Assembly (NCBI GenBank): GCA_965140785.1 | Contig: OZ223518.1 | Location: 32,001 to 96,000, forward strand | Source of the DNA: an uncultured Ruficoccus sp. | Lineage (GTDB): Bacteria > Verrucomicrobiota > Verrucomicrobiia > Opitutales > Cerasicoccaceae | Length of the DNA stretch: 64,000 nucleotides | Direction of reading: 5' to 3' | Part shown: positions 3,887-27,575 of the stretch, in pieces | How positions within the stretch are numbered: position 1 is the stretch's first letter | How the letters are laid out: every line of letters begins with the position of its first letter | Notes under the pieces: model-generated | The model's database searches: none | What the model was told of the DNA's origin: nothing | What the model saw: only the letters and a program-made list of their open reading frames with translations | Program-made: the position numbers and the translations under genes

Positions 3887-3963
3887 TGGTGGGAGTAACT
3901 GGGCTCGAACCAGTGACCTCATCCATGTCAAGGATGCGCTCTAGCCAACTGAGCTATACCCCC
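3887..3963 (-). tRNA. tRNA-Val(GAC)
   Basis: Reverse complement GGGGGTATAGCTCAGTTGGCTAGAGCGCATCCTTGACATGGATGAGGTCACTGGTTCGAGCCCAGTTACTCCCACCA: cloverleaf, anticodon GAC, encoded CCA. Confidence 0.95.
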
Positions 3964-10606: not shown

Positions 10607-10787
10607 GGCCGAACGATTCCCATATTGCGCCCCCGGTCAAGGCTAACCGGTGGCCGGAAGTTTGACTTATGGGTGCGATTAGCGTTAGTTTTGGGAAAAC
10701 AAAGTTGGATAAACCAGCCGCCGGGCGGGAAGGACTTGAATCGCCCCCGCCGGGTTGGTAATTACCGTCGAAAGAAAGGGTTTTTTG

Positions 10788-11516
10788 ATGAAAGTACAGG
10801 TATTACAGCACGTTCCGTTCGAGTGGATCGGCAGCATGGAGCCTTGGCTGCTGGAGCGCGGGGCGGAGATTTTTACGGCGAAACTCTACGAGTCGGACGA
10901 CCTGCCAGACCCGGCGACGGTGGATCTGGTGATCGCCATGGGCGGGCCGATGAGCGTCAACGACGAGGCCGGGCACCCCTGGCTGGTGCCGGAGAAGGCC
11001 TTCCTGCGCGAAGCCGTCCAGCGCGGCGTGCCCACGCTCGGGGTGTGCCTGGGCGCGCAGCTCATCGCCAACGCGCACGGGGCCACCGTGGGGCGCAACC
11101 CGCAGCCGGAGATCGGCTGGTTCCCCATCGAGTCCGTGCCCGCGCCCCGGGGGACGTTTACCTTTCCGGCCAGGCTCGACGTTTACCACTGGCATGGGGA
11201 AACCTTCGGGTTGCCGGCGGAGGCCTCCCTGCTCGCGTCCAGTCTGGCGTGCAAGAACCAGGCCTTCCAGATGGGGGATAACGCCATCGGCATGCAGTTT
11301 CACCTGGAAACGACCCCCGAAACAGCCGCTCTGCTGGTCGAGAACTGCCGAGACGAGATCGTGCCGGGCGAGTACGTCCAGAGCGCCGAGGCCATGCTCG
11401 CCGCCCCGCCCGAGCGTTATGCGGCCATCAACAAACTCTCGGGCCGCATCCTCGACTACGTGCTCGGCAACCGCACCGGAGCGAAAAAGCGCCCCGAGGA
11501 CGTGATCATATTTTAG
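10788..11516 (+). CDS. Type 1 glutamine amidotransferase (GuaA-like stand-alone)
   Basis: MGGPMS, GVCLGAQL (catalytic Cys), QFHLE (His/Glu). Confidence 0.9.
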   Translation: MKVQVLQHVPFEWIGSMEPWLLERGAEIFTAKLYESDDLPDPATVDLVIAMGGPMSVNDEAGHPWLVPEKAFLREAVQRGVPTLGVCLGAQLIANAHGATVGRNPQPEIGWFPIESVPAPRGTFTFPARLDVYHWHGETFGLPAEASLLASSLACKNQAFQMGDNAIGMQFHLETTPETAALLVENCRDEIVPGEYVQSAEAMLAAPPERYAAINKLSGRILDYVLGNRTGAKKRPEDVIIF

Positions 11517-11517
11517 A

Positions 11518-11654
11518 GGCGGGCGTTTTTTCTGGGCTTATGCAGCCCAGACCCGCAGCAGACGAAGTCTGCACTTTCGATGCTGCGCATCGTGTCTGCA
11601 ATTGCTGAAATGGATATCCATTTCAGCAATTGCAGAGCAAAAGCATCAAAACTG
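11518..11654 (+). other. Four-hairpin structured intergenic element, copy 1 (ncRNA or MITE-like)
   Basis: H1 11531-11551, H2 11558-11572, H3 11578-11592, H4 perfect 42-bp palindrome 11595-11636; homologous to 26845-26988. Confidence 0.75.
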
Positions 11655-11745
11655 GGTCTCCACCATAGGATGGAATCTCTGTGGCAGGGGCCTTTGAGGA
11701 ACAGTGAGTGCTGACGATTGGTCAGGCAAGCTCTGTGCATTGCTT

Positions 11746-11830
11746 GGGGTAGCGGCCTTTTGGACGCGTAGGGGCGATAGCCCCTTCATGTCCCGTGCGG
11801 TCACGCACCCGCGTAGGGGCGCAGCCCCTC
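11746..11830. repeat. GTAG-type REP cluster
   Basis: GGGGTAGCGGCC...GCGTAGGGGC-GATA/GCA-GCCCC; same units as 13985 and 55843. Confidence 0.85.
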
Positions 11831-11855
11831 AATCGGGTCAAGCGCCGAGCGCTTG

Positions 11856-12959
11856 TCACCCACCGATTTTGAAGAGGGTGACGTCGCCGTCTTTGAAGAG
11901 GTACTCTTTGCCTTCGAGGCGGTACTTGCCGGCGTCGCGGGCGGCGGCGATGGAGCCGGCGGCAATGAGGTCGTCGTAGGAGACGACTTCGGCCTTGATG
12001 AATTTCTTCTCGAAGTCGGTGTGGATGACCCCGGCGCATTGGGGGGCCTTCATGCCGAGGCGGAAGGTCCAGGCGCGGGTTTCCTTTTCGCCGGTGGTGA
12101 AGTAGCTGGCCAGCCCGAGCAGGCGGTAGGCCTCGCGGATGAGGCGGTTGCAGCCGCTGTCGGAGATGCCGAGGCTTTCGAGGTATTCTTTGGCCTCGTC
12201 GGGGGCGAGTTCGCCCAGTTCCTCCTCGACGCGGGCACAGATCGGGCAGTAGCCGGCACCGTGGTGCTCGGCGGCCCAGGCGGCGACCTTCTGGACGAGC
12301 GGGAGGTTGTCGGCGTCGGCCAGCTCGTCTTCCTTCACATTGCAGGCGTAGAGGACTTTTTTGGCCGAGAGCAGGTTGTAGAATTTTAAAAGCGCGCGCT
12401 CGTCGTCAGTCAGCTCCATGGTGATGACGGGCTTGCCCTCGCCGGTGTGGGCGAGGATGCGGGTGAGCAGGGCGTGGTGGGTCTGGGCTTCCTTGTCGCC
12501 GCTCTTGGCCTTCTTGGCCCAGCTGTTGAGCTGGCGCTCGACGCTTTCAAGGTCGGCCAGGACGAGTTCGGTGTTGATGATCTCGATATCGCGGACGGGA
12601 TCGACGCCGCCCATGTTGTGGATGACGTCGTCGTCCTCGAAGCAGCGCACGACGTGGACGATGGCGTCCACCTCGCGGATGTTGGCGAGAAACTTGTTGC
12701 CTAAACCTTCGCCCTTGCTGGCCCCGGCGACGAGCCCGGCGATGTCCACGAACTCGATGGCGGCGGGAATGATCGTGCGGGTACCGCCGATCTTGGCTAG
12801 CGGCGCCAAGCGTTCGTCCGGCACCTCAACGACACCGACATTCGGCTCGATGGTGCAGAAGGGATAGTTCGCTGCCTCCGCCTTACGGGTGCGGGTGAGG
12901 GCGTTGAAAAGGGTGCTTTTGCCCACGTTGGGCAGTCCGACGATTCCGGCTTGGAGCAT
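11856..12959 (-). CDS. ychF: Redox-regulated ATPase YchF
   Basis: [29 protein letters not shown]-terminal TGS domain. Confidence 0.97.
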
Positions 12960-13792: not shown

Positions 13793-13956
13793 CTAGTGTG
13801 GCGTTAGCTTAGTTCATTGAAGATGTATTTGAGCCACTAAAAGGCACAAAAAGCACAGAACTGAAACTGACCCCTCTAGATTCGCGGCTTATCCTGATTT
13901 TTTGTGAGTTTTGTGGCCATTAACTTTTGCCTAGAACTAGGCTAACATAATACTAG
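13793..13956. mobile_element. 164-bp MITE-like element with imperfect 23-bp terminal inverted repeats bounded by CTAG
   Basis: Left end CTAGTGTGGCGTTAGCTTAGTTC vs reverse complement of right end CTAGTATTATGTTAGCCTAGTTC; no ORF inside. Confidence 0.6.
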
Positions 13957-13984: not shown

Positions 13985-14025
13985 GGGGTAGCCGCCTTTC
14001 TGGCGGCGTAGGGGCGCAGCCCCTC
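13985..14025. repeat. GTAG-type REP doublet
   Basis: GGGGTAGCCGCC-TTTCT-GGCGGCGTAGGGGC-GCA-GCCCCTC. Confidence 0.85.
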
Positions 14026-14046
14026 AGTGCCAGCGGGTGCAATCCG

Positions 14047-15657
14047 TTACCACATGCCCTGGTTGAGGGATTCGTTGACTTCGGCCAATTGGGTGAAACC
14101 GGTCTTGAGCTGGTCCACGCGCTCGGCGTGAAAGCCGGTGCGGGGGACGAGGGGGAGTTCCTCGAGTTCCTGGGCCTGCTCACGGAAGAAATCGGTCAGC
14201 GATCGGCCTTTGGCGCGCCCGCGATTGCGGATGATGCCGATGATTTTGTTGCGTTCGTTCAGGGTGATGCGCTTGCCCTCCAGAGAGGCGTACTCCTTGA
14301 CCACGGCATTGTGGGCGGTGATCCACTGGGAGAGGCGCGGGTTCTCGATGCCGGGAATGATGATGGGGGAGAATGGGTCACTGTAGTAAACGGCCATGAT
14401 GGAACCGGACTGCTCCATGGCGGCCTCGGCATCGATCAGGCGTTGGTTGATCATGGCGAGAGCCTCGGCGTGGAAGGGAATCCACTTGATGCGGTCGTCG
14501 AGCTTGACGCCAAAGCGGCGGACCTTGTCGAAGCCCGTCCCGGCCATGATCCAGTCTTTTTCACTGGTGGGGCTGAAGGTGGCGTAGGTGGCGACGGCCA
14601 CGACGACGTCCTTGTCGTTGACGATGGGGCTGCCGCTGTTGCCGGGGACGAACTTCGCGCTGGTCTCGATGCGGTCGAAGGCGTCGCCCTTGACCTCGCC
14701 CCGGATCTCGGTGATGACGCCCGCGCCCGCGCTGTTGCCGTAGACGGTGACATCCTCGCCAATGTCGGCCTCGGTCGTGAAGGTCAGGCAGGGGGGCTGC
14801 TGGTTAATGGTGATGCGGGCCAGGTCGCGGTCCTGGGCCAGCTCGATCAGGCGGGGCTTGAGCTGGGTGCCGTCGCGCATGCGGATGCTCAAGTCCTTGC
14901 CGGAGCCGACGACGTGGCTGTTGGTGAAGAAGTAAACCACGCCGTCCATCTGGCAGAGAAAGCCCGTGCCCGAGCCCTCGGCGGTGGTGACGAGCCCGAC
15001 GGCGTCCTCGGGGTCCCGCACGGGCATGAAGCGGCTCGCGTGCTGGGAAGCATGGACGCGTTCAGCTTTTTCCTCTTCGGCGTCAGCCAGCTTTTGGAGC
15101 TGAGCGGCGCTGAACTTGGGGGTGGAGACTTCCTCGGGCTCATGCCGGGCGACCGCCTGCGCGGCCTCCGAGCGTTCGATGGCCTCGCGGTAGCGGTCGG
15201 TCTCAATGAGGCGGAAGAGATTCTGCGGGAAGGGGACCCGGCGCTGAGTGTCGCCGACCGGGACGACCAGCTCGACTTTCCCGTCCGCGGCGGCGGCGAC
15301 GGGGTAGGGCGTGCCCTTCTGGATGAGGATGACGCCCTTGTCGAAGTTCAGGACGATCATGCCGTTGACGCTGGCGTTTTTGCCCTCGCGGGTACTGACG
15401 GTGCGCCCGTTCTTTTTCTTGGGTAGCTCGACCACGTGGACGGCGTCCCCGAAGTCGTAGTTAATAAAGAACACGTCGTTATTTTCGCTGATGATCTCGA
15501 AGGACTGCGAGGGGTATATCTTGCGCTTGCCCTCGTCGATGGGATAGCGGACGGCAAAGCTGGCGTTGGGCAGCGCGACATACGTGGCGGCGTGGGCGGA
15601 TAGCGGGATCAGCGATAAAAGCAGGCTCAGGAAACAGTAGAGGAAAACGGCTCTCAT
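14047..15657 (-). CDS. Secreted trypsin-like (S1) serine protease, no PDZ domain
   Basis: Signal peptide from MRAVFLYC; triad TNSHVV / DRDLA / PGNSGSP. Confidence 0.85.
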   Translation of the reverse strand: MRAVFLYCFLSLLLSLIPLSAHAATYVALPNASFAVRYPIDEGKRKIYPSQSFEIISENNDVFFINYDFGDAVHVVELPKKKNGRTVSTREGKNASVNGMIVLNFDKGVILIQKGTPYPVAAAADGKVELVVPVGDTQRRVPFPQNLFRLIETDRYREAIERSEAAQAVARHEPEEVSTPKFSAAQLQKLADAEEEKAERVHASQHASRFMPVRDPEDAVGLVTTAEGSGTGFLCQMDGVVYFFTNSHVVGSGKDLSIRMRDGTQLKPRLIELAQDRDLARITINQQPPCLTFTTEADIGEDVTVYGNSAGAGVITEIRGEVKGDAFDRIETSAKFVPGNSGSPIVNDKDVVVAVATYATFSPTSEKDWIMAGTGFDKVRRFGVKLDDRIKWIPFHAEALAMINQRLIDAEAAMEQSGSIMAVYYSDPFSPIIIPGIENPRLSQWITAHNAVVKEYASLEGKRITLNERNKIIGIIRNRGRAKGRSLTDFFREQAQELEELPLVPRTGFHAERVDQLKTGFTQLAEVNESLNQGMW

Positions 15658-22559: not shown

Positions 22560-22563
22560 CAAC

Positions 22564-22604
22564 AGGCAGGACAGGAGTCCTCCACCTGTGATCTTTCGGA
22601 TCAC
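22564..22604 (+). repeat. Two-hairpin element (H2-H3 type)
   Basis: aggcAGGAC-agga-GTCCTccacctGTGATC-tttcg-GATCAC; near copy at 55205. Confidence 0.7.
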
Positions 22605-22655
22605 TGATGGCTTTACTCAGACAAAGCCATGGGCCGCAAAGAAATCCTTTTATGC

Positions 22656-25951: not shown

Positions 25952-26110
25952 GGGGGCGTTTTCGCGAGTCCTAGTTGTCTGGCTGCCCCTCAGAGGGGCG
26001 GCTGACTGTATGGGACTGCCCTTGGAGGAGATCGGTTACGAACTTTCCTCTCCGTGCCGGTAAAACCGTCTGCGGCTTGACCTGCGAACGTGAGCCGCTT
26101 TGCTGTCTTT

Positions 26111-26779
26111 ATGAGGATGCCGATTCTTTTTGCGCTGGCTGGCGCGTTCGCGGCGGGAAGCAGCCTGCCCCTGTATGGCGGGCTGGAGTGGGAGCGTACC
26201 GAGTTTACCGCGCCTGCGGTCTTCGGCCAGGCTTCGCTGGAGGCGACGTACCCCTTTAAAAACACCGGGACCGAGCCGGTGCGTATCCTCAAGGTGAAAA
26301 CTTCCTGCGGCTGTACCTACGCCGCCGCCAGCCAGGAGGTGATCGCTCCGGGTGAATCGGCGGAGGTAGCCGCGTTCTTCGAGACCGAATCACGGGAGGG
26401 CCCGCAGTCCTCGACCATTACGGTCCTCACCGATGAGCCGGACGAGTCGGCGACGACTCTGCGCTTCCGTTCGGATATTCCTGCGGCGGCCGAGCTGCCG
26501 ACCCGTGTGGTCCGCTGGAAAGCCGCCGATCCGCGCGAGGCCAGGACATTTGCCATCACCGTCCAGCCCGGCGTGAGCCTGCAACTGCTTCCGCCCAAAC
26601 GCCCGCTGCCGGTGGAGGTGAAGCTGGAGAAAAATCAAGCGACCGACGGCAAGCCCGGCTACACCCTCACCCTGGCCCCGCTCGACGGCGATAGCGGCGC
26701 GGGGATTCTACCGCTGGAGGCCCACTGGGCCGGTGAAGGCAAGCGCCTCTATAATCTTTACGTCCGAGTGGACAAATAG
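26111..26779 (+). CDS. DUF1573-domain secreted protein
   Basis: FKNTGTEPVRI..VKTSCGCT......IAPGES. Confidence 0.85.
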   Translation: MRMPILFALAGAFAAGSSLPLYGGLEWERTEFTAPAVFGQASLEATYPFKNTGTEPVRILKVKTSCGCTYAAASQEVIAPGESAEVAAFFETESREGPQSSTITVLTDEPDESATTLRFRSDIPAAAELPTRVVRWKAADPREARTFAITVQPGVSLQLLPPKRPLPVEVKLEKNQATDGKPGYTLTLAPLDGDSGAGILPLEAHWAGEGKRLYNLYVRVDK

Positions 26780-26844
26780 AACACGGGGAAGGGACTGCTC
26801 TCCTCGTGTGGTGAATGCTAAGTTCCCAATATAATTGGCGGGTG

Positions 26845-26988
26845 CAGTTTGCATGTTTTGTCCCTCTGCGATTGAAGGGAACGGCTGAAGCCGTTCCCTT
26901 CAATCGCATACACGATGCCATCGGCATCGAACGTGCAGGCTTTGCCTGCCGCGGGTGCGGGCTGCGTAAGCCCGCAGAACATTCCGCC
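26845..26988 (-). other. Four-hairpin structured intergenic element, copy 2
   Basis: Reverse complement aligns hairpin-by-hairpin with 11518-11654; H4 is a perfect 19-bp stem at 26867-26908. Confidence 0.75.
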
Positions 26989-27008
26989 GAAGACTTTGAA
27001 GTCAGGCC

Positions 27009-27575
27009 CTAGATCAGGCCGAGCTCCATCTTGCCCTCTTCCGAGATCATGTCCTGATTCCACGGCGGGTCCCAGACGATATCCACCTGAGCCTCACTGA
27101 CGCCGGGGACGGACTCGACGCGGATGCGGGCATCCTCGGCGATGGCCGGTCCCATGCCGCAGCCGGGGGCGGTGAGGGTCATCTGGACGTTGACCTTGAA
27201 GCCGCCTTCCTCGCGCGGGTTGGAGTCGAGCGAGTACACCAGGCCGAGGTCCACGATGTTGACCGGGATCTCCGGGTCATAAACGGTCTTGAGCGCTTCC
27301 CACAGGGCGCCTTCGTCGGGCGGGCCGGAGTGGTCGGCGTCCGCAGCGGCAGGGGCGGTATCTTCGCTGTCGCCGCCGGGCTCGTCTTCACCGAGGGCGT
27401 CAGCGTCCTTGCCCAGGACACGGAACATCCCGTAGTCGCACACGATGGTAAAGTTGCCGCCGAGGCGGTGGGTGATGTCCACCTCCATGCCTTCGGGCAG
27501 GTTGATCTTGTCACCGGCAGGAATGACGGTGGCCTCGACTTCGCGGGTCAGGGTGCGGTGGTTGTCAGTAGGCAT
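27009..27575 (-). CDS. sufT: Fe-S assembly protein SufT (DUF59)
   Basis: [34 protein letters not shown]. Confidence 0.92.

Follow-up and report, generated by a model that had tools for sequence, protein, structure and literature searches.

A four-hairpin intergenic repeat in Ruficoccus, probably a new REP/BIME-like DNA family with a MITE subset rather than a new RNA

Genes and hairpin copies in the window

The window, that is, the whole stretch of 64,000 nucleotides of Ruficoccus sp. DNA analyzed here, contains two copies of a unit of about 140 nt in which, as read from the sequence, four hairpins and a tail are arranged in the order H1-H2-H3-H4-tail. Copy 1 starts 15 nt past the stop (11516) of a gene encoding a class I glutamine amidotransferase (GATase) and has ychF as its opposite neighbour, in a convergent gene gap that also houses an oppositely oriented module array (11746-11855). 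Copy 2 is located behind the stop of a SufT-like gene (FeS_assembly_P) and is opposed by a gene encoding a DUF1573 protein, also in convergent arrangement. The relevant features are the following (G1, G2, C2 and D1 are labels of this report):

10755..11516, + strand: GATase, class I glutamine amidotransferase gene (PF00117)
11531..11551, + strand: copy 1 H1, 8-bp stem with a 5-nt loop, preceded by a T-rich linker
11558..11572, + strand: copy 1 H2, 6 bp with a triloop, purine-N-A loop on the + strand
11578..11592, + strand: copy 1 H3, 6 bp with a triloop, on the - strand a GCGNAGC mini-hairpin
11595..11636, + strand: copy 1 H4, long variable hairpin with a perfect 19-bp stem
11637..11664 (end approximate), + strand: copy 1 conserved tail, in which the H2/H3 junction recurs as an imperfect inverted repeat of 13 nt
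11746..11855, - strand: companion module array beginning at the ychF stop, GTAG-tagged REP-like hairpins in the order G1, C2, G1, G2
11856..12959, - strand: YchF GTPase gene (PF06071, PF01926)
13794..13955, strand not given: putative 162-bp MITE with similar IS630 TA-bounded ends and a different inverted-repeat cargo
13985..14046, - strand: companion module array of G1/G2 type, beginning at the stop codon at 14047
22560..22632, + strand: module D1, an H2/H3-like pair beginning at a TAG stop, related to the four-hairpin unit
26090..26779, + strand: DUF1573 protein gene (PF07610)
26804..27011, - strand: putative old IS630-type MITE of 208 bp enclosing copy 2; right end with 5 mismatches in 21, left end degenerate (10 in 21)
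26842..26981, - strand: copy 2 four-hairpin unit and tail, behind the SufT-like stop
27009..27575, - strand: SufT-like FeS assembly protein gene (PF01883)

A first-pass annotation of this DNA had described the two copies as sense-oriented units behind genes in convergent gaps, and both were located as such, each folding into four hairpins with z = -8.2 (0 of 200 shuffles equally stable). The hairpin unit that it had delimited as copy 2 is also present but belongs to something larger, a TA-bounded unit of 208 bp (26804-27011) of which it forms the core. The fold of copy 1 contains in addition an enclosing helix, which is not conserved among copies. The long-range pairing between the tail and the H2/H3 junction is conserved, with two constant mismatches and zero compensatory change.

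Copy number and taxonomic distribution

The genome of the window (G000, 90.85% complete) and four other genomes (G001-G004) represent the genus. An iterated nhmmer profile detected 83 matches (E<=1) in G000, of which 33 are nearly complete and the others fragments, meaning that the two copies initially listed are real but far from the only ones. A covariance-model search, which the first-pass annotation had suggested, showed the unit to be multi-copy in all five genus genomes and nearly absent beyond: with a model built from 71 copies, 150 candidates scored per genome and partial modules counted, the numbers of matches were 89, 139, 129, 75 and 32 (139 corresponding to G001). Under the same scoring, matches elsewhere in the family were limited to 18 weak ones in G008 and a single one in each of G013 and G014, the remaining eight genomes having none, while only one of 140 further genomes of the wider phylum was matched, weakly. 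At the 13 out-of-genus loci examined, the matches are mostly H1-H2-H3 or H2-H3 cores lacking H4 and the tail. In one of the G008 loci (L229 1500-1570) the H1-H2-H3 core apparently continues into the start of a coding region.

Searches with an exact pattern yielded 68 loci in the genome collection (66 from Verrucomicrobiota records and two chance partial matches), seven in metagenomes (one true, L080, and six chance partial matches) and none in viral contigs. No description of the family was found in the open-access literature. The four-hairpin element is probably a non-coding DNA repeat of the REP/BIME kind, interspersed in the genome and specific to this lineage.

Module arrays at the 3' ends of genes

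The four-hairpin unit belongs to a set of hairpin modules that can recombine and that occur in arrays at gene 3' ends. The modules were defined by 17 motifs of our own naming, an array being two or more modules, and the counts of gaps, stops and orientations given below depend on a rough hexamer gene caller. According to these rough calls, 68 of the 130 arrays of G000 lie in convergent gaps, 56 in co-directional gaps, five in divergent gaps and one at a contig end; for the four-hairpin copies themselves the convergent location amounts to 33 of 54, compared with 348 of 1823 gaps in the genome. Orientation is also biased, as 41 of the 54 copies are in the sense of the upstream gene (crude gene calls). 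The ends of 102 arrays in G000 map between -10 and 30 nt from a stop codon and those of four near a start, and many arrays begin on the first base past the stop. TAG is the stop at 59 of these 102 ends vs 789 of 2957 stops overall (p=2e-11), and 33 of the 102 are CTAG stops. A GTAG tag is carried by two of the modules, the companions G1 and G2, and is absent from the four-hairpin consensus; the available part of PMC3733652 describes that the ends of GTAG REPs frequently provide the TAG stop. Opposite the four-hairpin unit there is often a paralogous arm whose H1-H2 head is the same, which results in composites of ~290 bp.

Some short modules, co-oriented with the gene, have its stop codon within the loop, and in the window the segments 11746-11855, 13985-14046 and 22560-22632 begin at stops. 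Tandem runs of at least five GTAG-tagged module pairs occur at G000 C47:87843-88125 and C18:47952-48176.

At orthologous gene gaps the occupancy, make-up and orientation of the arrays vary between species: in the relatives the gap has another arrangement, orientation or H4, or is empty. The gap of copy 1 holds a unit with a different H4 in G002, a truncated unit in G003 and only a short module in G004, and is not syntenic in G001, while that of copy 2 lacks the unit in all four other genus genomes. One two-arm composite (G000 C2:3902-4268) is inverted in G001 and G002 in the same gap (L005 and L045). Some sites are occupied in several species, for example both sides of metG, which fits long residence and possible host use. 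The two units there, 2 kb apart, flank metG and not a transposase. The metG frame itself (G000 C14:38099-39640) shows an apparent shift near its 3' end relative to L107, which may be an assembly error.

In eight loci of the relatives (L007, L012, L018, L032, L034, L035, L047, L059) the two flanks of the copy map apart in G000. Copies may mark rearrangement breakpoints, and contig breaks could imitate some of these cases.

IS630-type ends and the MITE subset

A minority of the copies sit inside TA-bounded, IS630-like terminal inverted repeats (TIRs), as MITEs of ~208 bp, as judged by sequence. TA-bounded inverted repeats extend about a dozen near-identical copies in G000, and ends of IS630 type were detected on 17 of the 59 G000 matches at E<=1e-3, compared with 7 of 1000 random windows. 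No such ends were found on the other 42, copy 1 included, nor on 89 of 122 copies overall (~70%). Among the 12 TIR-bearing units listed, which are short and non-coding, 11 measure 192-211 bp and 10 have TA at the right end, the left TA having belonged to the search pattern. In the window, the putative MITE around copy 2 has the same length (208 bp) as the MITEs of G003; on the left it opens with the TA of the CTAG which provides the SufT-like stop, and TA is present on this side only. The cargo type of the 162-bp element at 13794-13955 stands in tandem with a four-hairpin MITE in G003 (L159, L162, L250), and the 162-bp element shows that ends of IS630 type carry several cargos.

At the locus L159 of G003 three elements are lined up with single TA junctions common to neighbours: an intact IS630, a MITE of 208 bp with the four hairpins, and one more MITE whose cargo is different. 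The L159 transposase scored 272 bits on NF033545 (cut-off 100), and the right end of this IS630 shares an exact stretch of 18 nt with the end of a young G000 MITE. DDE_3 matches amounted to 12 in G003 and four in G002, and no IS630 transposase was found in G000 (90.85% complete), G001 or G004, though G000 and G004 hold TIR-bearing copies. The copies with TIRs, copy 2 included, would be MITE cargo, and the IS630 DDE transposase, for this subset only, is the one enzyme to which the sequence evidence points.

With regard to insertion sites, the gap in G002 orthologous to the C25 site has no MITE and is strongly diverged, and the C40 site is not syntenic in the four relatives. Where a MITE has inserted inside a G1-G2 module, the sequence departs by one base from the empty form seen most often, and neither an excision nor an empty site could be read in the contigs of four sequencing runs.

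A tree was built from 122 near-full copies, of which 33 bear TIRs. These 33 require 8 changes on it (shuffled mean 29.4), and none of 200 bootstrap trees unites them in one group, a result obtained with few columns, an unsettled bootstrap and recombining sequences, H4 included. Tail types are also unevenly distributed, one being present in 42 free and one TIR-bearing copies and the other in five free and 22 TIR-bearing copies. Since the TIR copies fall in separate groups and never in a single bootstrap group, it is suggested that an older free unit was captured repeatedly by IS630 ends.

Alternatively, all copies could come from IS630 MITEs, the free ones being old insertions that lost their ends and whose hairpins were kept by the host as 3'-UTR elements acting on mRNA stability or processing, as in ERIC or Correia. 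Eroded ends do exist (copy 2), T-rich stretches precede H1 in both free and TIR forms, and at one site the G003 copy has TIRs and the G000 copy is free; the enrichment of CTAG stops at array ends (33/102) and the sense orientation of 41 of 54 copies by the crude gene calls are also in its favour. Against this descent, the tails of free and TIR-bearing copies differ (42 vs 1 and 5 vs 22), the TIR copies are clustered separately with no bootstrap tree giving them one origin (few columns, recombining sequences), H1-H2-H3 cores occur in other genera without such ends, as judged by reading, and unrelated cargo is found within the same IS630 ends. Altogether, a common descent from IS630 MITEs is considered unlikely, and the reading in which a free repeat was captured by IS630 ends is preferred. 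What is new is that a REP-like unit enclosed by IS630 ends links repeat classes usually kept apart.

Covariation and DNA-type features of the hairpins

The compensatory changes reported initially for two copies were confirmed in an alignment of 71 related copies with the structure set by hand, in which 95.0% of the paired cells can pair, compared with 78.9% after shuffling, and the covariation value is 0.377 vs 0.098 (0 of 500 shuffles reached it). Two-sided change occurs at 19 of the 22 H4 pairs, whereas five of the six H3 pairs are invariant. In these 71 copies H4 accumulates 318 two-sided changes and only six one-sided (wobble) changes. H4 could be parsed in 97 of 162 de-duplicated matches, with stem limits that maximise pairing and hence inflate perfection; under these limits the pairs are 1972 Watson-Crick, seven G-T, 12 A-C and 23 other. 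The 97 parsed copies contain 93 distinct H4 variants. The first-pass annotation had seen a swapped palindromic core, and the inner H4 does differ between the two window copies, but as part of a continuum and not as two cassettes. The length is 45 nt in 64 of the 97, with a near-fixed stem of 21 bp.

The loops of H1-H3 have a fixed polarity. Of 71 copies, 57 have a GCGNAGC/GCGNNAGC DNA mini-hairpin as H3 when read on the - strand and none when read on the + strand, while the purine-N-A loop of H2 is on the + strand in 63; the accessible text of PMC13037366 reports that mini-hairpin motifs of the GCGNAGC type are far more stable as DNA than as RNA. The stable loop of H2 is on the strand opposite to that of H1 and H3, an arrangement not accounted for by a single-stranded intermediate. 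The tips of H4 show no clear polarity (37 purine-rich vs 54 pyrimidine-rich, p = 0.09), and its triloops appear in both orientations in 13 of 37 loop classes, comprising 67 of 97 copies, a count that could partly reflect free loop mutation. A flip of the tip was found in otherwise near-identical copies of the young G000 group (TTATC/GATAA); L135 and L086 have six differences as read and one when flipped. Only one pair passed the strict flip test.

Template switching, in the part of PMC8794818 available, yields perfect stems and inverts loops, loop inversion being its published mark. Arm-to-arm copying by this mechanism would fit the covariation of H4 better than RNA selection or cassette swapping. 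The covariation looks DNA-like because wobble is near-absent, the stem is near-fixed at 21 bp and the tip occurs in both orientations. The initial proposal that structure is under selection is reasonable for H1-H3 and for the length of H4; for the H4 pairing it is too strong, since arm-to-arm copying gives the same pattern with no selection. The repeat is a warning case for RNA-motif discovery, as very strong covariation occurs in a DNA repeat and probably arises through arm-to-arm copying, and the scarcity of G-U pairs together with loop flipping are signs that separate a DNA repeat from RNA selection.

A functional structured RNA, either a non-coding RNA or a 3'-UTR motif with many paralogous copies and selection on the RNA structure, was one of the first-pass suggestions, and it agrees with the z = -8.2 folds, with the excess of pairing and covariation over all 500 shuffles (95.0% vs 78.9% and 0.377 vs 0.098) and with the strong bias in 3'-end location and orientation. 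This suggestion was not supported: G-U pairs are nearly absent, the loops are triloops and not RNA tetraloops, and in 71 of 71 copies the strand co-oriented with the upstream gene gives the weaker RNA fold of the two. Moreover, promoter-like and terminator-like sites are absent inside the unit, the sites turn over between species and there is no Rfam match, all of which makes an RNA function quite improbable and speaks for the DNA repeat.

Searches for known families and mobilizing enzymes

The view that the unit belongs to no known Rfam family was corroborated by comparing the window, the copy 1 region and seven further loci with this database. The window at gathering score and the seven loci gave tRNA matches only, and the copy 1 region, inspected by E-value, gave only sub-threshold matches to miRNA and snoRNA hairpins. 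The tRNA gene of the window is located at 3890-3963 (- strand). MISL RNA was considered and discarded, having no Rfam match in the window and no paper found in the open-access literature.

The first-pass annotation had also contemplated a non-autonomous single-stranded DNA element of HUH/RAYT type, of which the non-autonomous mobile repeat stands and the RAYT/HUH partner was not found. Neither a RAYT nor a reverse transcriptase (RT) was detected beside copies: Y1_Tnp is absent in three of the five genus genomes (G001, G003 and G004), and the scanned Y1 loci (L063-L071; loci L169-L187 of other genera left out) and RT loci (L072-L076) contain no four-hairpin unit. The two Y1_Tnp genes of G000 were rejected as mobilizers, having TIRYT-like ends of their own and no four-hairpin unit nearby, as were the short Y1 genes of G008, which are flanked by other repeats. 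The small ORFs between inverted module arrays, judged by reading, looked like ordinary unknown genes. IS701 (PF13546) gave nothing above cut-off in the five genomes, and in G001 no DDE_3 match was obtained.

Near-identical Y1 transposase genes of 308 aa with short TIRs are present at L001 1400-2430 and L002 (G000 C10:480060-481075 and C43:224640-225655), and orphan TIRYT-like ends at C48:189878 and 190688 surround AT-rich ORFs inside a module composite.

A retron-like (msr-msd) origin, with copying by an RT, would account for the order of the hairpins, the short ones preceding a single long and variable one, and for the helix that encloses them in the copy 1 fold. As this helix is not conserved, no RT was found in G001 and the RT loci L072-L076 have no unit nearby, such an origin is hardly credible.

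The unit could instead be a recombination or binding site in a folded single strand, comparable to attC or to the site of a host DNA-binding protein, in which a fixed-length rod with a variable tip would be read by a host enzyme other than a transposase. This idea would explain the 45-nt length of H4 in 64 of 97 copies, the conserved imperfect 13-nt inverted repeat with its two constant mismatches that flanks H4, and the location of several copies at synteny breaks, as well as the fact that G001 has 139 matches yet no Y1_Tnp, RT or DDE_3 match. Conversely, the long-range pairing shows no compensatory change, the units sit between housekeeping genes and do not divide gene cassettes, the R and L integrase boxes of integron attC sites were not seen in the consensus by reading, and no enzyme was found. 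A site of this kind is very unlikely, and the modular repeat remains the preferred reading.

Proposed origin and spread

The best explanation of the whole (probability of about 0.7) is a modular DNA repeat of the REP/BIME kind, a subset of which is carried in IS630 MITEs and whose H4 is maintained by arm-to-arm copying. Ranked by support from the highest to the lowest, its parts are the dispersed repeat, the IS630 carriage, the H4 copying, the constraint on loops and length, and the spread of the free copies. The free unit would have come first and would have been captured by IS630 ends more than once. The IS630 transposase would move the TIR copies in trans to TA/CTAG sites, often a TAG stop, which would be left intact. 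Pairing in H4 would be kept by recopying one arm from the other at replication, through template switching or arm-to-arm recombination, with flips of the tip as well, of which direct examples exist; the loops of H1-H3 and the length of H4 would be constrained as DNA hairpins. More tentatively, free copies such as copy 1 might spread by a single-strand route of REP type with an enzyme that was lost or not recognised, and perhaps also by gene conversion among resident arrays, and copies may persist at stop codons because the genes remain intact. A side effect on mRNA 3' ends is possible by analogy with proposals for ERIC and Correia, as presented in the part of PMC2229807 at hand.

A bolder version gives the folded strand the leading role: the free form would be a new class of non-autonomous element, moved or recombined as a folded single strand of DNA without a transposase of its own. 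Its shape would be read by a host enzyme that places it head-first at stop codons, and the capture by IS630 would be a side route. The shape code would be made up of the three mini-hairpins with their polarity, the rod of two turns whose tip can flip, and the mismatched 13-nt flanking repeat. This version is a long shot; if true, it would represent shape-coded, stop-codon-targeted mobile DNA with no known enzyme.

Relation to known repeats

The modular repeat described here is best seen as a new family within a well-known type of selfish DNA (REP/BIME-like, MITE) rather than as a new RNA, and it shares features with several systems. The comparisons with RUP, ERIC, Correia/NEMIS and CIR repeats that follow rely on the part of PMC2229807 available. 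The TIR subset resembles the IS630-mobilised MITEs known as RUP in S. pneumoniae in being short, non-coding, TA-bounded and intergenic (PMC2229807), and, as with RUP and IS630-Spn1, the evidence is indirect, consisting of ends that match an autonomous IS630 (PMC2229807). Unlike in RUP, ERIC and Correia/NEMIS, the ends here seem to enclose a captured four-hairpin unit that mostly occurs free, and this unit is GC-rich and forms separate hairpins in place of a single end-to-end stem (PMC2229807). It also differs from the IS630-mobilised MITEs in that the partner transposase was not found in G000, the genome being 90.85% complete.

GTAG REPs, BIMEs and REPINs, as far as described in the available text of PMC3733652, are likewise palindromic intergenic modules in arrays or inverted pairs, located downstream of genes with a convergent bias, and are often at the TAG stop or supply it, the GTAG being carried here by the companion G1/G2 modules. 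Conversely, a GTAG REP/REPIN is a palindrome of 20-40 bp with terminal GTAG, whereas the four-hairpin unit is ~140 nt long, has no GTAG tag and was not found flanking a RAYT, and it possesses a long hairpin of fixed length that varies freely and flips. The unit was not filed as a REP because the GTAG and RAYT tests failed, though it works like a REP/BIME module.

The CIR repeats of Caulobacter/Brucella, which are intergenic, 110-140 bp long and composed of independent arms and linkers with a conserved shape, are similar by description (PMC2229807); they belong to a different phylum, and four hairpins are present here.

Finally, hairpins maintained by template switching have in common with H4 the perfect stems, several paired changes at once and loop inversion (available part of PMC8794818). 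The published cases concern rRNA and miRNA genes, with rare inversions (PMC8794818, same part), whereas in this dispersed bacterial repeat they appear common, and the dozens of paralogous 21-bp hairpins per genome provide a natural data set to measure template switching in bacteria.
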